DNA of 64,000 nucleotides from an uncultured Candidatus Bathyarchaeia archaeon (GTDB lineage Archaea; Thermoproteota; Bathyarchaeia; 40CM-2-53-6; RBG-13-38-9). Shown piece by piece: positions 36,757-42,919 of this stretch (position 1 is the first letter of the stretch; each line of letters begins with the position of its first letter). Made by a program: the position numbers and the translations under genes. The stretch spans positions 1,653-65,652 of the forward strand of contig CAYZRW010000011.1 in assembly GCA_964480955.1 (NCBI GenBank). Reading direction: 5' to 3'. The notes under the pieces were generated by a model that was not told the DNA's origin, made no database searches, and saw nothing but the letters and a program-made list of their open reading frames with translations.

Positions 36757-36903
36757 CGCAACGACTTGAGTCTCGACGATCCGTTGTGTGTGTCCTAGCA
36801 GTTCATTAACTTTTATTGTCTGTCGCTCAGGAGACTAACATTCTGGGAACCAATAGGTCAATGGTGTAACTTGGTCCACTAAGGCACCAAAAGAGATGAG
36901 ATC

Positions 36904-37182
36904 ATGAGTTCAAATGATGGTGCTCTCTTTAGGGTTAACCCGTCCACTGGTGCTCAGACGTTACTGTCAGACTTTGGTGTTGGAACCCCAGCTGGAGCAC
37001 TCCTACGCGGTGTTGCTGTTGTGCCGGAGCAGCCAACACCAACACCCACACCCACACCAAAACCTGTCGGCGGCGTTGTAGTACCGACAAGCAAGCTTGA
37101 GATAGCGGCACCATTCGCAGCACTGGCAGGACTAATCATAGCCGTATCAGCGGTTGTAGTGGTTAAGCGAAGAAGAGACTAA
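36904..37182 (+). pseudogene. C-terminal remnant of a surface protein with PT linker and PVGG-type membrane anchor
   Basis: LFRVNPSTGAQTLLSDFG, PTPTPTPTPKPVGGVVVPTSKLEIAAPFAALAGLIIAVSAVVVVKRRRD; no signal peptide. Confidence 0.55.
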
Positions 37183-37190
37183 CCAAAACA

Positions 37191-37206
37191 TCCTTTCTCT
37201 TTTTTC
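37191..37206 (+). terminator. Possible oligo-U terminator
   Basis: TCCTTTCTCTTTTTTC shortly after stop 37182. Confidence 0.35.
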
Positions 37207-37268
37207 GTAACTTCCTAGCATACTTTATCTTACATCATTTTGGCGAGCGTAGCGAGCAGTATATGTGT

Positions 37269-37350
37269 GTGTGGTCCCTTGGTGAGAGCATGTGAATTTG
37301 AACCGTTAGGTTCCGTTGTTTCTTGGTGTGTGTGCTCACCAAGGGTCCAC
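37269..37350. repeat. Structured intergenic motif, copy 1
   Basis: GGTCCCTTGGTGAGAGCATnnnAATTTGAACC...GTGTGCTCACC; CCCTTGGTGAG/CTCACCAAGGG stem; 29/32 identical to copy at 41159. Confidence 0.7.
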
Positions 37351-37630
37351 CACCAGAGAAATCTGTTCATGTCAGGGGAAGAATCCCCTAAAACCCCTCT
37401 TCACCAAACTGATTGCTCACTATGCTCAGCAATGCTGCAATGACCGCCGACAGAATCCAACCTAGTTAACCAACCTGTTCATATCCAAGCCCTACCGCCC
37501 TCTTCAGCCATTGTTGATCGTTTCAGATTCATCAAAGATAAACGGTTCGTTCGTAAATGACGATTTTCCAGCTCCGGAGTTCAGGTCTCTGCTCCTTGGA
37601 GGATTGATTTTGCAAGAACTTGGAATAATT

Positions 37631-38245
37631 CTAAGCTGTTGCAGGCCGTTTCTGAAGGGTTTCTCTAATCTTCTTGATCTCCTCTAGGATCTGAAGACTG
37701 AAGTTCTCGAATGTTGAGGCCTCGATTCCAGCTTCTACAGCCATAGGTCTCAAGTGTCTGACCCTGTTCATGACAAGGTTTTTGATCTCTTCGAAGTTCT
37801 TGGTCCCCAGTATGACTGCCTCAGCGATCTTGGTGCTTCCACTTCCTCCTCCACTCGAAAACCCAGCCGTCTGTATGGAGATCTTTCCAAGCCCGAAATG
37901 TCGAGATAATGGTCCTTGAATAACATCAAGGTTCGTGACTCGGTTGTAGGGGACTATGCTCTTATGCTTCCACCAAACACCCTTCTCAACGATTATGTCG
38001 CTTTCAGTCAGAAGATATGTCAGAGACGCATGGAACTTCGGAATCCAGAAACACACGAAAACCACAACAGCCACTAGTGGCGGGAACAGACTCGATATGA
38101 CATACGTGGTAACGATTGGTGACAGGCTTAGTGCCAGAATACCTACGGGAATAGCCCATGAAAGGTAGAAGATGATGCATGCCAGTGCCAAGTAGGTGTA
38201 GTAGAGCTTCTTCAAGTCATCATGCGGTTTGAAAGATTCATTCAT
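37631..38245 (-). CDS. Membrane protein with bacterial PH domain (YdbS-like)
   Basis: Two TM helices then Y.LTE..I.VEKGVWW....VPYNRVTNLDVIQGPLSRHFGLG.I.IQTAG. Confidence 0.85.
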   Translation of the reverse strand: MNESFKPHDDLKKLYYTYLALACIIFYLSWAIPVGILALSLSPIVTTYVISSLFPPLVAVVVFVCFWIPKFHASLTYLLTESDIIVEKGVWWKHKSIVPYNRVTNLDVIQGPLSRHFGLGKISIQTAGFSSGGGSGSTKIAEAVILGTKNFEEIKNLVMNRVRHLRPMAVEAGIEASTFENFSLQILEEIKKIRETLQKRPATA

Positions 38246-38342
38246 GAAATCGAACCTTCCTCAGTATTTACGTTGTTTGCGCCCTTCTAAATGGTCCGGT
38301 TTCGAGGAGCCGCACCAAAAGATACACATAGGCAAGTAGCTA

Positions 38343-38618
38343 TCAGAATGCCTGTCGAAGAAGTAGGAATAGAAATACAATAACACCTGCTGTGAGTTCT
38401 GCAAACATGACCTTCTCTCGCTTTGCAGTCAGCGGTTTGTGATTCTGTTCTTCTAAAGCAACTCCAATAGAGATGCCCACACCGGCTCCAACAGCGATCC
38501 CAATAGGAATAGAACCGATTACAATCCCATATGGAATAGCGAGTGCTATACCGACCACCGTTCCTATCAGGTAGCCAGCACCTCTTGGCAATTTACGGCT
38601 ATGGATGTTTTCCTTCAT
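38343..38618 (-). CDS. Small glycine-rich membrane protein
   Basis: Hydrophobic GxxxG-rich helices (GIAVGAGVGISIGVAL) and C-terminal TM. Confidence 0.55.
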   Translation of the reverse strand: MKENIHSRKLPRGAGYLIGTVVGIALAIPYGIVIGSIPIGIAVGAGVGISIGVALEEQNHKPLTAKREKVMFAELTAGVIVFLFLLLRQAF

Positions 38619-39024
38619 TCATCTCCACTTCCGTTATTTGCACTGAGATATTCCTTAAAGGCTTTCTTACAACTTGTGAGTGTATCCATTGGTGAGCACA
38701 CACAACATCTAATGTGGCTCGTTTCGCTCGCCAGAAGAAGACTAAGGTAAGAAAGTCAACAATAAAACAGCAACATTACCTGTTAAGTTAGCTGGCAGAG
38801 GTAATATTACCTAGATAAACTGCTGGCAACCAGCCAGTTTAACAGCATAGCCAGGCTGTATACAACTATAGTTTAACAGCTAGGGTTATGCTCACGGCAT
38901 AAACCACGAACACAACCAGCTGTATCAACTATTTGTATAACTAACTAGCTAAGCGACTGACGGTTACATGTTAAACTACATATGTAAAAACGCGCGCCAA
39001 CTTGGAAATTGAAAAATAGATATC

Positions 39025-39303
39025 CTAGGATATGAGCGAATCAGCGCTAGACCTCGTTTGATTGATTATGCATCCATCACGTTCAAGTCTAACTTGAAGA
39101 ATGCCAGAATACTTCACAACTCGACAGTTCTGAACCCGAATACTATCGCCAGGCTCTATTTGAGTATCTACGTTCCTTGCTCGATACCTGACAAAGGTCC
39201 GTCCCGATCCATCGTCCAAAACTATCATGAAACCATTCATGTCGATAATCTTCCCTTGCAGGTTCAACTTTCTCATACCAATACTGATATCGCTTATTTT
39301 CAT
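39025..39303 (-). CDS. Single OB-fold nucleic-acid-binding protein (SSB/RPA-like)
   Basis: MKISDI..GM..LNLQGKI...LDDGSG...IEPGDSIRVQN...YSGILQV; 4-nt overlap with helicase. Confidence 0.7.
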   Translation of the reverse strand: MKISDISIGMRKLNLQGKIIDMNGFMIVLDDGSGRTFVRYRARNVDTQIEPGDSIRVQNCRVVKYSGILQVRLERDGCIINQTRSSADSLIS

Positions 39304-40424
39304 TTCCGTTTCACCAACTCTGGAACTTCCTTGATGGTGTTGCCACCGATTTCTTGTATTCTCTCAAAGTTGGAGAGTTGCTCGGGAGAAACCAGGGTTA
39401 TGGCGACCCCTTTCTTCCCAGCTCTCCCGGTCCTACCGATTCTGTGGAAGTAATTGTAGGGATCGTCAGGGACATCAAAATTGATGATGTGAGTTATCCC
39501 CTCGATATCCAATCCTCTGCCGGCTAAGTCCGTCGCGACCAGTATTCGACGTCGACCGTTCGCAAATTCGTCCATGGCCCAGTCACGCTGATTTTGGGAG
39601 AGATCCCCATTTATGACCACCGAAGATAAGCCCTTAGAACGTAGTGTGTCATTTACCCAGAATGAGTCTCGCTTAGTCCGACAGAACAATATGGCGCGAT
39701 CTATTCTCTCGCGACGTAGAAGTTTCAGAAGCGACTTGATCTTCGTTCTCGAGTCTGTAACGAGGAAGTACTGGTCAATCTCCTTGACATTGAGATCGTC
39801 GGATTCGATCAGGACCTCACGAGGATTCTTCATGTAGCGCCGGGCGAGTTTCAGTACACTATCGGGAATAGTGGCTGAGAAGAGGGCTGTTTGATGTTTT
39901 CCTTTAATCGCTCTCAGGATCCATTCGACATCTTCAATAAAACCCATGTCAAGCATTCTGTCAGCTTCGTCCAGAACGACGCAAAAAGTATTGTCTAACC
40001 TAAGCGATCCACCTTCTATGTGATCTAGAAGTCGGCCTGGCGTGCCAACGATGATCTGTTGATGATCCTTCATTGCGTCAAGCTGAGCGTATTTCGATAC
40101 GCCTCCGTACAATGCTAGAGCATGTTTGTTAGTCTTCTTAGCATAGGAGTTTAAGTCCTCTGCGACCTGAACTGCGAGTTCTCGCGTTGGAACAATTATT
40201 AGTGCTTGAACAGCAGGATTATTTTCATCGACTATCTCTAGGATTGGCAGACCGAAAGCTGCGGTCTTTCCAGTACCCGTATGAGCTTGCCCTATTACAT
40301 CACTTCCACTCCACAGAATTGGGATTACCCTCTCCTGGATTGGGTAAGGCTTCTTGAATCCGAGATCATCGAGTGCATCTACAATCTCTGGACTCAGCCC
40401 CATATCTTCGAAACTGTTCATCAA
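39300..40424 (-). CDS. DEAD-box RNA helicase (minimal core)
   Basis: Q motif, AHTGTGKT, PTRELA, GTPGR, DEAD, SAT, HRIGRTGRAG. Confidence 0.95.
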   Translation of the reverse strand: MMNSFEDMGLSPEIVDALDDLGFKKPYPIQERVIPILWSGSDVIGQAHTGTGKTAAFGLPILEIVDENNPAVQALIIVPTRELAVQVAEDLNSYAKKTNKHALALYGGVSKYAQLDAMKDHQQIIVGTPGRLLDHIEGGSLRLDNTFCVVLDEADRMLDMGFIEDVEWILRAIKGKHQTALFSATIPDSVLKLARRYMKNPREVLIESDDLNVKEIDQYFLVTDSRTKIKSLLKLLRRERIDRAILFCRTKRDSFWVNDTLRSKGLSSVVINGDLSQNQRDWAMDEFANGRRRILVATDLAGRGLDIEGITHIINFDVPDDPYNYFHRIGRTGRAGKKGVAITLVSPEQLSNFERIQEIGGNTIKEVPELVKRK

Positions 40425-40624
40425 TGATTGTCACCATGGCTCTGCAACAAAAGCCGCAAGTCTCTTGTGCTAACCTGAAAATGCAACCAATCGAAAGATC
40501 GATAATTCAGTTTCACACTATGATATCTGTGCGGAATGTGCTGCGTGAGAGCTCATTTGGCCTTCAGCGATGCTAAGAAATTAGTACCACTGGATGACCT
40601 TTCCCGCTATAGACCCGAGCGGCC

Positions 40625-40638
40625 TTTATAAGGTTAGC
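40625..40638 (-). promoter_or_regulatory. Putative TATA box for helicase operon
   Basis: Minus strand CTAACC-TTATAAA about 200 bp upstream of start, no ORF between. Confidence 0.4.
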
Positions 40639-40672
40639 GGTTTCGATTTTGCAATAATATGGTATGTTATTT

Positions 40673-40688
40673 TGTGTGTGTGTGTGTG
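40673..40688 (+). repeat. (TG)8 microsatellite
   Basis: Eight TG units, followed by GGTAGCGCGCGC. Confidence 0.8.
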
Positions 40689-40832
40689 GGTAGCGCGCGC
40701 AACGCCTCTTGAGACCAACATAAGCTTCCGTTGTCGCTGACCATAAGCAAGGTGCCTGTCGAAAGTTCCTACGCTATACTCTTTTAATTGCGATGCCCTC
40801 TGTTGTGCCTTTCGTCTTAGGCAAAGAAAGCC

Positions 40833-41081
40833 TCAGGGCGGCTCTATGTCCTTGAACTTGACGGTTCCTCGCATGCTGAATCTGACTGTGAATCTACGAG
40901 GGGTTTCACTATCAGGTGAACGATAAGTCCCATCAGCTTCCCACAAGTCGCCCACTTGACGGATCTTTCGAAACTCAACCGCATATCTTTGCGAACAGAC
41001 CTGCTGGGTCATCTTGAGAACTTTCGTTCTTACTTCATCTTCAGTTATGCCTGGCCGCCTGAAACGAGGGATAGTACCCAC
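40833..41081 (-). CDS. Small hypothetical protein
   Basis: 82-aa ORF, helix + beta-strand pattern (PepSY-like by eye only). Confidence 0.4.
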   Translation of the reverse strand: MGTIPRFRRPGITEDEVRTKVLKMTQQVCSQRYAVEFRKIRQVGDLWEADGTYRSPDSETPRRFTVRFSMRGTVKFKDIEPP

Positions 41082-41156
41082 TCCTAGGCCAGATATTGAA
41101 CATCGTTAACTTGTAAACATTTCTCTAGAGGGCCATCCTATTTGGTGGTGGTGGTG

Positions 41157-41226
41157 TCGGTCCCTTGGTGAGAGCATCAAAATTTGAACCCCAGTTTCAA
41201 TCATCTTGTGTGCTCACCGCAGGACG
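41157..41226. repeat. Structured intergenic motif, copy 2
   Basis: GGTCCCTTGGTGAGAGCATCAAAATTTGAACC...GTGTGCTCACCGCAGGAC; GTCC/GGAC and GGTGAG/CTCACC pairings. Confidence 0.7.
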
Positions 41227-41570
41227 CACACAGGCTGGGCGAAGAAGAAGCTGAAGACAAACACAGCAGATAACCAAGCACACAAGTTTTCGACCCGTCA
41301 CAAGAGAGAAAACTACTTCAAGAGCATGCCGCGAGAGTCGACCGAAATTACAGAAGATGCCTGACACCCACCCGTCTGAACATGACTGGCGACCCCCTAG
41401 GGGTGGTGGGGGGGTGGGGTACCCTCTCAAGACAGAAATTGGAAAAGCCCAGAGAGATAATCGAAACTACTCAGACCCTCCAGCTCAACCTTCCTGAGCC
41501 GCCTCCTCATTGGCTAGTGTGCGCTGATTGAGGCGTCTCATGGCTGTTTCCAGCAACACAGAATTACTGA

Positions 41571-42071
41571 TCAGAACTCCTTGAAGGCTAGTTCGACTGC
41601 CTCTCCAACAGAGTCCGCGGATTCAACCCTCCCACCGTCAATCACCGCTCCAGCCATCTTCTCCGCAACTCCTCCTGAGGGTCTGAGCGCTATCACCCTC
41701 TTGCCAGCCTTCAGCGCCAAACCAATCTCTGAGAGGGTTCCAGCCCCTCCGTGAACCGCAATCACCACGTCTCCAGACAAGACGTTTATCACGTTCCTAC
41801 CGTCCCCCATACCTGTCACGATGACAACATCGACATACCGGTTAGCGTCTCTTCCAGACCCGGGCAATATGCCTACTGTGAGACCGTTCCTCTCCTTCGC
41901 TCCCTTGCAGACCGCCTCCATGACACCGCCCCTGCCACCTGTTATGAGGACCACTCCTCTGCTCGCGATCGCCCGCCCCAACTCCTCAGCCATCTCACAA
42001 ACACTCGAAGGAACCTCGCCACCACTCCCAATAACCGTAATCTGCCTCATACGCACAACCTCAACAAACAC
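41571..42071 (-). CDS. TIGR00725-type LOG/SLOG family protein
   Basis: TVIGSG, LITGGRGGVMEAVCKGA, GRNVINV, GGAGTLSEIGLA. Confidence 0.88.
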   Translation of the reverse strand: MFVEVVRMRQITVIGSGGEVPSSVCEMAEELGRAIASRGVVLITGGRGGVMEAVCKGAKERNGLTVGILPGSGRDANRYVDVVIVTGMGDGRNVINVLSGDVVIAVHGGAGTLSEIGLALKAGKRVIALRPSGGVAEKMAGAVIDGGRVESADSVGEAVELAFKEF

Positions 42072-42154: not shown

Positions 42155-42919
42155 ATGATAAGAATGAACCTGGCAGAACTCGCAGAGGACATGCCGAACA
42201 CACGCCTGCTCTACTTGGACGACTCATACCTCAAAGAATCCTCCTGCAACATCCTGAGGGTTGAGCCTGACGACCGAAAGAGCGCATACATACTGCTCGA
42301 CCAAACAATATTCCATCCAAAGTCAGGCGGACAACCCTCGGACAGAGGAAGAATACTCGGCGACGGATTCGCCTTCGATGTGAAAAAGGTCATGATGACT
42401 GGCGAGGTCATAATCCACTGGGGAAAGAATATCCAAGGCACCCCTCAAAGCGGCGCCGCCCGCCTCGAGATAGACTGGGAGTCCAGATACAGATACATGA
42501 GGAAGCACACCGCAGCACACCTGTTCGACGGCTGCCTATCAGCAGTCCTGAAGGAGCGCGTCGAGACAACCGACTCATGGGTTGGAGACGACAGCTACAT
42601 AGGATACCGAGGCGCCTGCCCAGCAACCGAGCAACTTCAGTCCGCCGAAACGATGGAGAACGAACTGATCGGGAAAGGCGCAAATGTCACCTTTCAAATG
42701 ATGACGAGAGAAGAAGCCTTACTCTCCTCCCCCGGTGCGCCAAACCTCGACAGGCTGCCTGAGAATAAGGACCTCAGAGTCGTGACGATAGAGGGATTCC
42801 ACGGAATACCGTGCGGAGGAACCCACCTCAAGAACATAAAGGAGATCGGACAATTCAAACTGAAATCTCCCGAGGTCATCAACGGCGGCTTCAGAGTAAA
42901 CTTCGACGTGATCCCCTGA
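42155..42919 (+). CDS. alaX: Alanyl-tRNA editing protein AlaX
   Basis: LDQTIFHPKSGGQPSDRG, HTAAHL, CGGTH. Confidence 0.9.
   Translation: MIRMNLAELAEDMPNTRLLYLDDSYLKESSCNILRVEPDDRKSAYILLDQTIFHPKSGGQPSDRGRILGDGFAFDVKKVMMTGEVIIHWGKNIQGTPQSGAARLEIDWESRYRYMRKHTAAHLFDGCLSAVLKERVETTDSWVGDDSYIGYRGACPATEQLQSAETMENELIGKGANVTFQMMTREEALLSSPGAPNLDRLPENKDLRVVTIEGFHGIPCGGTHLKNIKEIGQFKLKSPEVINGGFRVNFDVIP

Follow-up and report, generated by a model that had tools for sequence, protein, structure and literature searches.

The locus and its repeat modules

In the window, i.e. the whole stretch of 64,000 nt that was analysed, two same-strand (+) copies of a short sequence lie 3,886 bp apart and enclose a block of protein genes (Table 1). 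Copy 1 stands between two convergent genes, of which one (92 aa) ends at 37182 and the other (bPH_2) at 37631. Copy 2 is located upstream of an 82-aa gene and overlaps the final codons of an unsupported 77-aa ORF (41197-41430, - strand). Pfam matches bore out the enclosed bPH_2 and DEAD-box helicase genes named in the preliminary description of the locus, whereas the protein called OB-fold there gave only weak replication-factor-A-like matches.

The two copies are identical at 29 of 32 bases. They have in common an exact 19-mer, GGTCCCTTGGTGAGAGCAT, found twice in the window for 0.04 occurrences expected, and the pattern GGTGAGnGC-N20-50-GCTCACC occurs exactly twice for 0.00 expected. The distal GTGTGCTCACC that pairs with the 5' arm (37330-37340 and 41208-41218), the inner hairpins and the different closures of the outer stem (CCCTT/AAGGG in copy 1, GTCC/GGAC in copy 2) were all recovered as first described. 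The fold of copy 1 (-43.1 kcal/mol) is far better than that of shuffled sequences on both strands (z -5.6 on +, -5.6 on -); that of copy 2 is not (z -0.4 on +, -1.5 on -).

Table 1. Repeat modules of the window, in order of position
Feature	Position	Strand	Remark
Partial module (GT)4-CCTAGC, without TGGTGAG	36786-36799	+	105 nt upstream of the 92-aa gene
Box A GCGAGCGTAGCGAGCAG, then AT-rich AGTATAT	37243-37259	+	Optional upstream module of the family
(GT)4 microsatellite before copy 1 arm	37265-37272	+	
Copy 1, GGTCCCTTGGTGAGAGCATGTGAATTTGAACC	37273-37304	+	Window sequence
Copy 1 5' arm: 14-nt M module, GGTCCCT + TGGTGAG	37273-37286	+	
Copy 1 core unit, TGGTGAGAGCATGTGAATTTGAACC	37280-37304	+	nhmmer E 2.3e-9
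Copy 1 inner hairpin GAACC-GTTA-GGTTC	37300-37313	+	Followed by T-rich 37314-37325
Second (GT)4, G, inverted M module CTCACCA + AGGGTCC	37326-37348	+	Copy 1 return arm
Box E, GGGGAAGAATCCCC TAAAACCCCTCTTCA	37375-37403	+	Multi-copy module adjoining copy 1
Solo module without core: box A (38731-38715), AT-rich spacer, GTGTGTG, CTCACCA-ATGGATAC	38682-38731	-	72 nt upstream of a 91-aa membrane protein gene
(GT)7, then GGGTAGCGCGCGC	40674-40700	+	GT tract 6 nt shorter in run X8
(GGT)4 microsatellite + GTC before copy 2 arm	41144-41158	+	Variable in length: 6 nt absent in runs X8, X10
Copy 2, GGTCCCTTGGTGAGAGCATCAAAATTTGAACC	41159-41190	+	M module GGTCCCT + TGGTGAG; core TGGTGAGAGCATCAAAATTTGAACC at 41166-41190
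Copy 2 inner hairpin TTGAAC-CCCA-GTTTCAA	41184-41200	+	In minimum-free-energy fold
GTGTG + degenerate inverted M module CTCACC-GCAGGAC	41208-41225	+	Copy 2 return arm

A repeat family of Bathyarchaeia

Both copies belong to a family of modular intergenic repeats of Bathyarchaeia that has many copies and had not been described before, and within it they are ordinary members. The genome and metagenome search proposed at the outset returned more than 100 occurrences of the core TGGTGAGAGCAyCnnAATTTGAAC, from Bathyarchaeia MAGs and from metagenomes of sediments. Exact cores were found at 9 loci in 3 Bathyarchaeia MAGs and on 71 metagenome contigs, and 117 core instances were collected at <=5 mismatches. 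The copy 1 core was matched by an nhmmer profile of 87 units, all from other loci, and copy 2 was matched at E 1.1e-9. The core was absent from the viral contigs searched, and neither unit nor M module occurred in 743 kb around the glutamine synthetase genes of 80 other genomes.

Nearly all units (93/95) are intergenic. Their orientation relative to genes has no strong bias: unit and upstream gene share a strand in 47 cases and lie on opposite strands in 30, the corresponding numbers for the downstream gene are 32 and 44, and solo modules split 6/6 and 9/9. Of 37 long loci, 21 contain at least two module sites (median gap 1,047 bp), and those of the window all fall within 36.8-41.2 kb. The 3.9-kb spacing of the two copies is best explained by such a local cluster of modules and not by a specific bracketing of the helicase block.

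Fold of the units

The hairpin is not a defining feature of the family because the return arm is found in only 23 of 84 units (27 %), because the complementarity of the arms beyond the invariant TGGTGAG/CTCACCA barely exceeds that of shuffled partners (4.48/7 versus 3.92 ± 0.26) and because G·U pairs are equally numerous on the two strands (22 on each), i.e. without strand asymmetry. The covariation score was 0.194 versus 0.150, and no signal typical of an RNA was apparent in the stem. The different closures of the outer stem, first taken for structure-level conservation, come from a pair of alternative 7-nt modules found repeatedly in the family. The proposal of an undescribed ncRNA family holds insofar as the family exists and has no Rfam match, even at E <= 10; its structural argument is weak in view of the return-arm and G·U counts. 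The assignment of the hairpins to archaeal H/ACA or another known class of guide or structured RNA would agree with the single hairpins of 70-80 nt in both copies and with the ACA-like triplets that follow the stem (ACCACCA in copy 1, GCACACAG in copy 2), but it is largely ruled out by the same empty Rfam search, by the absence of a K-turn or K-loop, by a 'pocket' that is the conserved part where a guide would vary, and by the many family members (most of them) that have no hairpin.

Mosaic architecture

One and the same core adjoins no fewer than nine different conserved right flanks and several left modules. The junctions are sharp, with breaks immediately before TGGTGAG and immediately after GAAC(C). 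The arm and core of copy 1 are found identical at the unrelated locus L046, where they are joined to a different right flank, and this junction also exists in the window's own metagenome (run X2). The GGTCCCT/TGTCCCT arm is one of the two recurrent 7-nt types and recurs at unrelated loci. The two copies of the window are therefore not a private pair.

Of the units, 66 % are preceded within 25 nt by a GT, GGT or CGT tract. Box A precedes 11 % of them; in L002, L005, L006, L009 and others, its motif comes before the GT tract at a distance of 5-20 nt. Sequences resembling box E were found in L006, L027, L028, L070 and L080, and contig depth at box E reaches 72-106 for a background of 21 (run X8). 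For the piece at 40674-40700, a variant closer to an acceptor 3' end, GGTGGTAGCGCGC, is present in L004, and similar TGGTAGCGCGC pieces in L004 and L017.

A full element would begin with an optional upstream box, either box A (GCGAGCGnAGCGAGC) or another, longer one that contains ACGT iterons and TATATCCCCCC; an AT-rich spacer and a GT, GGT or CGT microsatellite would follow. The 14-nt module, composed of 7 variable nt of two types and TGGTGAG, would come next, then the 25-nt core ending in GAAC(C), sometimes with a short hairpin and a T-run, and sometimes a second microsatellite and an inverted 14-nt module that would close a long hairpin. The 25-nt core is strongly conserved with only two free positions, a conservation that stems partly from the exact-match searches by which copies were collected. 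This conservation suggests a sequence-specific function, e.g. as a binding site or through base pairing, and counts against a simple repeat family.

Strain polymorphism and gene content

In the strain of run X8 (98.6-98.9 % identical), positions 37258-37326 are replaced by CCATTATAATT, and the gene block and the arm at 37326-37348 are kept. Microsatellite lengths differ between strains, and no units were found beside the DEAD-box or glutamine synthetase orthologues of relatives at ~76 % protein identity. The family is unstable and its positions are not fixed, and the two copies of the window mark a stretch of genome that is unstable in turn. At locus L031, two direct copies of the 14-nt piece AGCTGGTGAGCACA enclose an additional 1,011 bp with a 279-aa gene; the 98.7 % identical locus L003 has a single copy of AGCTGGTGAGCACA and no 279-aa gene. 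This single repeat-bounded gene indel may be an isolated microhomology deletion, which counts against the repeat-family reading.

It is very unlikely that the two copies are dedicated recombination sites mobilising the 3.9-kb block of bPH_2, OB-fold-like and DEAD-box genes as a cassette. The copies do flank the block in the same orientation, module sites are typically about one gene apart, and L031 and L003 provide an example elsewhere of a 1-kb gene bounded by two direct 14-nt modules and absent in a close relative. However, run X8 keeps the block without most of copy 1 and no contig joins 37.3 kb to 41.2 kb, so the recombination sites first suggested for the enclosed genes are not supported for this block. 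Further modules lie inside it (38682-38731, 40674-40700), the shared GGTCCCT arm is a family subtype, no recombinase is encoded in the window region and the closest species has the DEAD-box and 82-aa genes together with no units. Neither a hybrid single copy joining the flanks of 37273 and 41230 nor a circular 3.9-kb junction was found in four runs.

Archaea, too, are reported to have integron attC sites and CALIN arrays (PMC9668308). The modules resemble them in being hairpin-capable, variable sites about one gene apart, with one single-gene segment that has a site at either end and is absent in a relative. In contrast to attC sites, they have no RYYYAAC...GTTRRRY core pair, the orientations of sites and genes are mixed, no IntI is present, and the sole nearby integrase family is tRNA-targeting and unlinked to the units.

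Resemblance to tRNA 3' ends

The core, when read in reverse, is spaced like the 3' end of a tRNA, with its T-loop, acceptor strand, discriminator A and CCA: the reverse complement of the copy 1 core is GGTTCAAAT-TCACA-TGCTCTC-A-CCA. The six real tRNA genes in the loci follow G-TTCRAAT-C(N4)-N7-N-CCA and the units GG-TTCAAAT-T/C(N4)-TGCTCTC-A-CCA, with identical spacing. The units thus share the GGTTCAAAT, 5 nt, 7 nt, A-CCA arrangement of the tRNAs on the same contigs, as would 3'-terminal tRNA fragments at the borders of integrated elements, and some of them stand right behind real tRNA genes (L028, L004), but they have no cloverleaf, no complementary T-stem and no match to the neighbouring tRNA, and they occur as dozens of dispersed copies. 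That a unit is itself a tRNA was rejected, as ARAGORN found no cloverleaf, with or without introns, and no complementary T-stem exists. The reverse complement of the piece at 40674-40700, GCGCGCGCTACCC, is also reminiscent of an acceptor 3' end. Judging from these spacings, the most likely ancestor of the core is the terminal 25 nt of a tRNA gene. No parent tRNA with the core's 3' end was present among the matches listed, which counts against this origin.

The stretch from T-loop to CCA is reportedly the identity block of T-loop-targeting integrases. The units could then be leftover or pseudo attachment sites, i.e. tRNA 3' ends displaced by tyrosine integrases and amplified into short arrays, an explanation that we consider improbable. 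It accounts for units that start at the T-loop and end at CCA, and for those that directly follow genuine tRNA genes with introns, at 31-33 nt and in the same orientation (L028, L004). In L026 three units, and in L008 one, come after a XerA-like integrase beside tRNA-Val, and a Cas1 fragment lies near units in L064. Nevertheless, no match exists between the units and the 3' end of the neighbouring tRNA; their T-stem partner lacks complementarity, and they mostly carry T at position 61. The missing parent tRNA among the matches listed and the core-free viral contigs also speak against such sites, four further integrase loci of the same family beside tRNA-Val or tRNA-Ile have no units, and the array period of ~54 nt is too short for integrated elements. 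The tRNA 3' end that such sites would need in a unit-bearing lineage is ...TGCTCTCACCA.

Nature of the family

Each unit could alternatively be a small RNA gene on the GGTGAGAGCAT strand, giving an RNA of ~45 nt that would be antisense to a tRNA-3'-end-like sequence and would act by base pairing or as a protein-binding site. The promoter of the gene would be the upstream box with an AT-rich, TATA-like element and the GT tract, its start would lie near TGGTGAG and its end at the hairpin and T-run. We hold this to be possible but rather unlikely. In the contexts of both box A and TATATCCCCCC, a TATA-like element indeed precedes TGGTGAG by ~15-25 nt, and box A, AT-rich spacer and GT tract also precede a protein gene at 38731-38682. 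T4+ runs follow within 40 nt in 41 % of units (A5+ in 4 %), a 4-bp stem using the core end is present in 25 % versus ~5 % expected and is built in three different ways, and arrays (L002, L005, L071) consist of unit, T-run and next GT tract. On the other hand, T5+ runs are found in 20 % of units only, many units run straight into unrelated sequence or an opposite-strand gene, and the promoter-like box faces the opposite strand in some elements (L001, L005, L010). The region was not found in any RNA run. The unbiased orientation of units relative to genes, the G·U pairs without strand asymmetry, the loss or replacement of units between near-identical strains and their absence at orthologous sites in related species are further arguments against it. 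The promoter-like upstream pieces and the downstream T-run or short hairpin of some units do fit a transcription unit and count against a BIME/MITE-like family.

We favour, with a probability of about 0.55, a Bathyarchaeia-specific repeat family of the BIME/MITE kind that would persist and change at the level of DNA and be prone to recombination. The one gene indel bounded by repeats also speaks for it. Of the three options of the preliminary description, a REP/MITE-like element is the closest: the units occur in many copies, between genes and in mosaic arrangements, they differ between strains and they keep no fixed position. No target-site duplications were seen, which counts against the favoured reading. 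Moreover, the conserved part is the interior core and not the termini, which is unusual for a MITE. In such a repeat family, recombination between short shared pieces would copy, swap or delete modules and whatever lies between two of them, and the modules would make intergenic regions hotspots of strain-level variation. The multiplicity, the mosaic junctions, the intergenic location, the strain polymorphism and the repeat-bounded gene indel are observations; we infer from them neither more nor less than a probable spread by recombination, and for the core a probable origin in a tRNA gene end. No dedicated transposase or recombinase was identified, and the 327 neighbouring ORFs include no shared protein gene, transposase or RAYT, which counts against the repeat-family reading.

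Several known families offer points of comparison. MITEs, including archaeal ones such as the Sulfolobus SM elements, are likewise small, non-coding, multi-copy and present or absent between strains, and about a quarter of the copies here have inverted terminal arms. Unlike in MITEs, most copies are devoid of inverted arms, the ends vary more than the interior and an autonomous IS related to the family is lacking. Similarly modular are the BOX elements of pneumococci (boxA-boxB(n)-boxC) and repeats like them, with an optional repeatable middle unit, short tandem arrays of 1-3 units, a stable structure predicted in some copies and no coding capacity of their own. Their sequence is unrelated, the kinds of flanking modules are more numerous here, and many copies here are without one or both end modules. 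There is also a likeness to bacterial REP/BIME sequences, repetitive extragenic palindromes in mosaic arrangement, which are short, multi-copy and strictly intergenic and combine a small set of interchangeable motifs in either orientation. They frequently fold into hairpins, are common at the 3' ends of genes or between convergent genes, and are hotspots of recombination and rearrangement. The family described here differs from them by its archaeal host, by the RAYT-type transposase that was not seen, by an asymmetric 25-nt, tRNA-3'-end-like core in place of a GC-rich palindrome, and by microsatellite tracts that form an integral module.

A repeat family represented twice in the window

Two look-alike hairpin motifs, copy 1 and copy 2, lie on the same strand of the window with a spacing of 3,886 bp. 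The sequence GGTCCCTTGGTGAGAGCAT is identical in both, 29 of 32 bases agree up to ...AATTTGAACC, and a distal GTGTGCTCACC, complementary to the 5' arm, is present in each. The preliminary description of the two copies was thus accurate as to positions, shared bases and distal pairing. The 19-mer occurs exactly twice in 64 kb (0.04 expected), as does the looser pattern GGTGAGnGC-N20-50-GCTCACC (0.00 expected). Each copy contains one unit, i.e. one instance of a core of about 25 nt, and no other full unit is present in the window (nhmmer E about 1e-9; next match E 0.33). The window also contains one solo module (a 14-nt module, N7+TGGTGAG, without core) and two related module fragments, and all of its module sites fall within 36.8-41.2 kb. 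The block between the copies includes the genes of two membrane proteins (bPH_2 and one of 91 aa), of a small protein weakly similar to replication factor A, of a DEAD-box helicase and of a conserved 82-aa protein.

Further homologs were searched for in genomes and metagenomes, as the preliminary description had proposed, and were found. With three free positions, the core was recovered at nine loci in three Bathyarchaeia MAGs and in 71 contigs of sediment and freshwater metagenomes; with five mismatches allowed, 117 instances were counted in about 0.5 Mb. The search patterns are specific, since no unit or module was detected in 743 kb of unrelated genome neighbourhoods. Pattern scans of 2.9 million viral contigs were without the core, which speaks against a viral origin or an attP function. 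Because family members were gathered with patterns matching the core exactly, part of the apparent invariance of this core is a product of the search, and divergent relatives are under-represented. Genes in the loci were called as longest ORFs, which is an approximation. Literature searches brought up no account of repeats of this kind in Bathyarchaeia. Neither the 64-kb window nor the 133 kb of family loci gave an Rfam match at gathering score, and the four matches obtained at E <= 10 over 36900-41600 overlapped neither copy, so that the copies match no Rfam family even at this threshold.

The best-supported reading is that the units constitute a DNA-level, recombination-prone family of mosaic repeats, some hairpin members of which are MITE-like, and that the window happens to hold a cluster of its modules. 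In behaviour, the family is comparable to the bacterial BIME or BOX elements.

Positions of repeat modules and of neighbouring features in the window and in collected family loci (L numbers)
Feature	Sequence	Positions	Strand	Remark
Copy 1	window	37273-37348	+	sequence reading
Copy 2	window	41159-41225	+	sequence reading
Solo module	window	38682-38731	-	only one of its kind in the window
Related module fragments	window	36786 and 40674
Box E	window	37375-37403		GGGGAAGAATCCCC then TAAAACCCCTCTTCA
Segment replaced in run X8	window	37258-37326		replaced by CCATTATAATT
92-aa gene region	window	36927-37257
82-aa protein gene	window	40833-41081	-
82-aa protein gene	L081	7351-7596
G-rich stretch	window	41203-41463, especially 41393-41425		CCCCCTAGGGG then TGGTGGGGGGGTGGGG
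SLOG cluster4 (LOG-like) protein gene	window	41571-42071	-	followed by AlaX-type gene
AlaX-type gene	window	42155-42919	+	free-standing editing domain
Extra segment	L031	6116-7154		1,011 bp extra
Corresponding site	L003	5176-5192
tRNA gene	L028	4350-4560	-
tRNA gene	L004	2615-2735	+
tRNA gene	L008	2419-2525	-
tRNA gene	L026	4468-4569	-
Two-tailed segment	L017	4758-4900	-	others in L039/L046 and L009/L016
Two-tailed segment	L024	2165-2307	+
Two-tailed segment	L065	2411-2553	-
Cas1 fragment	L064	4911-5783	-	also in L004 and L049
XerA-like integrase gene	L008	966-2360	-	also in L359-L362
XerA-like integrase gene	L026	3025-4401	-
XerA-like integrase gene	L023	5105-6457	+

Modular organization of the units

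The units are assembled from a limited number of modules. Upstream, box A (GCGAGCGnAGCGAGC) was found in 11 %, and in 13 % there is a box of 85 nt that contains three or four CACGT iterons and ends in TATATCCCCCC; the further upstream contexts are other conserved boxes or a preceding unit. An AT-rich spacer then leads to a GT, GGT or CGT microsatellite (within 25 nt in 66 %), which is followed by the 14-nt module N7+TGGTGAG and by the core AGCAyCnnAATTTGAAC(C). The 7-nt arm comes in two recurrent types, CCATAGC/CCTTAGC/CCCTAGC or GTCCCT/ATCCCT. The view of the two copies as a private duplication does not hold, since the arm GGTCCCT is one of these types and locus L046 shares arm and core; there, the arm and core of copy 1 are joined to a different right flank, a junction also observed in the window's own metagenome.

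Downstream of the core, several outcomes were observed. A short stem using the core end follows some units (25 % vs about 5 % expected), in at least three constructions and then with a T-run (T4+ in 41 %). In some units, a second microsatellite and an inverted 14-nt module give rise to a long hairpin, while others continue directly into conserved sequences, of which at least nine unrelated kinds were distinguished. Units also form arrays of up to three, with a period of about 54 nt, and the solo module, which occurs in both orientations, has a GT tract on one side and a CA tract on the other. Units are intergenic in 93 of 95 cases, without strong orientation relative to neighbouring genes. Solo modules have no orientation bias at all, and a role as promoters of downstream genes was rejected on this basis. 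Module sites are clustered: 21 of the 37 loci of at least 6 kb contain two or more, with a median gap of 1,047 bp. The reading of these arrays as CRISPR was dismissed, as they comprise at most three units, with repeats unlike each other and 'spacers' sharing T-runs and GT tracts. A coding function was likewise rejected, the core having stops or no consistent frame; TAA is often found just before GGTTC on the tRNA-like strand, but long co-oriented ORFs precede only about 12 units.

Two further kinds of sequence recur in these loci. Box E, a small hairpin-forming module, is found beside units (also in L006, L027, L028, L070 and L080) and is multi-copy in metagenomes. Conserved segments of 85-135 nt start with a reverse-complement unit and end with a different sense tRNA-3'-end-like sequence (...CCCACyCCCCGCACCA, ...TCCTACTCCCGCACCA or ...CGGCGGCCrCACCA), so that two tRNA-like tails point outwards; no covariation was found in these two-tailed segments.

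Hairpin pairing and the small-RNA reading

The main rival explanation, which is judged to have a minority chance of being correct, is that the units may be a family of small RNA genes. Such genes are suggested, at the level of sequence features, by the promoter-like upstream boxes, by a TATA-like element at a consistent distance before TGGTGAG and by the T-runs or short hairpins after some units. RNA sequencing runs containing the region were looked for, and none was found. Copy 1 forms a hairpin of exceptional stability on either strand (z about -5.6 vs shuffles); the fold of copy 2 does not stand out from its shuffles (z -0.4 and -1.5). Across the family, the case for the structural conservation put forward in the preliminary description is weak: the return arm (CTCACC within 100 nt) was found in 23 of the 84 units with enough flank, a minority, enriched over the 2.3 % expected, and pairing beyond the invariant TGGTGAG/CTCACCA is weak. 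When arms were exchanged between elements, 3.92 ± 0.26 of the next seven positions paired, against 4.48 observed, a value reached by 121 of 5,000 shuffles. A pair count on 19 hairpin-type members gave 40-75 % pairing at each of the outer ten positions.

The covariation score of the same members is 0.194 vs 0.150 (5/500 shuffles). The G·U pairs number 22 on one strand and 22 on the other, and thus do not point to either strand as the one that would fold as RNA. Several members carry a run of five or more T inside the loop, so that an archaeal + strand transcript would end before the return arm. Inverted DNA copies of one module fit the modest arm matching as well as an RNA stem does. A longer variant, c8, was rejected as a structured RNA, its 30 predicted pairs being without covariation. 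An archaeal H/ACA sRNA was also rejected: there is no K-turn motif, the 5' side of the loop is the conserved core and not a variable guide, and the lower stem is absent in 73 % of family members.

tRNA likeness of the core

The reverse complement of the core, GG-TTCAAAT-(T/C)nnnR-TGCTCTC-A-CCA, has the geometry of a tRNA 3' end (T-loop, five bases, seven bases, discriminator A, CCA), with a spacing identical to that of the six genuine tRNA genes of the collected loci, each of which has CCA encoded. It is reasonable to infer that the core descended from a tRNA 3' end. The units are not themselves tRNA genes: they form no cloverleaf, the T-stem partner is not complementary and position 61 is usually T. 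ARAGORN called no tRNA in the window, by default or with introns allowed. A scan with the pattern GGTTCRAATC-N5-GCTCTCACCA returned, among the matches listed, rhizobial tRNAs and two more units (L198, L223); neither a Bathyarchaeia tRNA nor a putative parent tRNA, ending like the core in ...TGCTCTCACCA, was among these matches.

Certain units (L028 and L004/L019/L064) lie 31-33 nt after a real intron-containing tRNA gene, in the same orientation. An att site of a tRNA-targeting element was rejected, the units being unlike the adjacent tRNA 3' ends in L004, L028, L008 and L026. The tRNA genes of these four loci are interrupted by at least one intron, in some cases apparently at a non-canonical position, and CCA is encoded in several of them. 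In the 133 kb of loci, no tRNA was called by Rfam at gathering threshold or by ARAGORN with default settings, and ARAGORN with introns allowed recovered only 3 of at least 6. That standard tools miss intron-containing tRNA genes beside some units matters for the annotation of these genomes.

Known element classes and associated enzymes

Neither a dedicated enzyme nor target-site duplications were found in the ORFs near units and the element flanks, respectively. As for MITEs, the arms are bordered on the outside by inverted complements or microsatellites and not by the direct repeats of a target-site duplication. Terminal inverted repeats would correspond to the inverted 14-nt module downstream of 23/84 units (2.3 % expected), which is absent in the rest. 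When the 327 ORFs within 2.5 kb of units were clustered, no family was present in more than five loci, and no transposase cluster of an autonomous element was identified. REP/BIME-type mosaics share with the units their multi-copy, intergenic nature and the combination of few motifs in both orientations; no gene for RAYT (Y1 transposase), which is usually single-copy per genome, was found among the same ORFs.

The integron attC site is built on R'' RYYYAAC and R' GTTRRRY cores, whereas the arms of copy 1 are TGGTGAG/CTCACCA; GTTAGGT does follow the copy 1 core, but there is no RYYYAAC partner upstream, and the assignment was rejected. Archaeal integrons have canonical attC sites, and no integron-type integrase was found in the window region. 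It is quite improbable that the 14-nt module and the unit are sites of an unrecognised Bathyarchaeia gene-cassette system, or that the units encode tRNA-3'-end-antisense RNAs of about 45 nt. The former would resemble an integron in its outcome: accessory genes, in many cases for small membrane or secreted proteins, would enter or leave one at a time between sites spaced by about 1 kb, with a different site and a putative recombinase of its own. Cassette-like presence/absence leaving one site was observed in one example (L031 vs L003), and none at the window block.

A XerA-like tyrosine integrase gene adjoins tRNA-Val, upstream of units, in L026 and L008. This family (roughly 435-465 aa) has over 2,000 homologues in Bathyarchaeia and Nitrososphaerales and no Pfam match. 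At four further integrase loci, the gene again lies directly behind tRNA-Val or tRNA-Ile and no unit is present (4/4), so that the association with units looks incidental. A conserved CTTAAATnnTTAAGTGAAT follows the tRNA at the XerA-like integrase loci, and three of these four contigs end just past the integrase gene. The sole cas signal near units is a Cas1 fragment in one locus group. The similarity of this 290-aa protein is confined to the C-terminal two-thirds of Cas1 (Pfam E 4e-36). A tRNA gene and two units are located at a distance of about 0.6 kb from its gene, and no CRISPR array was found within the 7-kb locus.

Strain variation and recombination

The repeats differ between strains. 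A contig of metagenome run X8 matches the window at 98.6-98.9 % identity to either side of copy 1, the first GT tract, 5' arm, core and inner hairpin of which are replaced. What remains (box A, spacer, GTGTGTG, CTCACCAAGGG) is the solo form; the change is a replacement and not the clean insertion of a MITE. Logan contigs end at 37273-37302. Copy 2 and the 3.9-kb block are both retained in the X8 strain, where only microsatellites have changed in length, and no contig in four runs joins copy 1 to copy 2. The copies were therefore rejected as dedicated recombination sites for the enclosed genes. Loss of these genes with one copy left, also envisaged in the preliminary description, was not seen in relatives: X8 lost most of copy 1 instead, and in the closest species-level relatives (about 76 % protein identity for DEAD-box helicase and glutamine synthetase) the DEAD-box and 82-aa genes are still neighbours, with no units beside the DEAD-box / glutamine synthetase orthologues.

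Other loci vary as well. The unit of L031 differs at 5/25 positions from that of L069, the two being about 95 % identical downstream, which suggests, from this comparison, that units may be replaced rather than held by purifying selection at a locus. L031 and L003 are 98.7 % identical over 5.2 kb, and the extra segment of L031 is a clean presence/absence: it contains a complete gene for a 279-aa multi-pass membrane protein between two direct copies of AGCTGGTGAGCACA, where L003 has a single copy and no such gene. A systematic indel search among family loci yielded this pair only; its second indel is unrelated to the family. We infer that the family spreads by recombination. Recombination between short shared pieces would generate sharp junctions, strain differences, unit replacements and repeat-bounded gene loss.

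If the mosaic-repeat reading is correct, Bathyarchaeia, which are abundant sediment archaea, would have their own class of mosaic intergenic repeat, functionally akin to BIME/BOX and built around a tRNA-3'-end-like core and microsatellites. Such repeats break short-read assemblies, mark strain-variable regions and can seed whole-gene deletions. The resemblance of the core to a tRNA, the constancy of the module junctions and a site spacing of about one gene prompt the questions of a dedicated recombinase and of a small RNA.

The SLOG cluster4 and AlaX genes flanking the repeat cluster of the window are ordinary housekeeping genes. The 82-aa protein has no family assignment; it is 85 % identical in the nearest species, where its gene adjoins that of the DEAD-box helicase in a different arrangement. 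The 92-aa gene region encodes a Pro/Thr-rich linker and a C-terminal hydrophobic anchor, and gives a weak LPXTG-anchor match; it is hypervariable across strains (524 nt in the X8 contig vs 400 nt in the window), and the X9 and X10 contigs break there. An unsupported ORF of 77 aa overlaps the G-rich stretch immediately after copy 2. In runs X1 and X8, contig depth over this stretch is 3-5x background, and loose ends are numerous there, which suggests that it is a separate multi-copy element.
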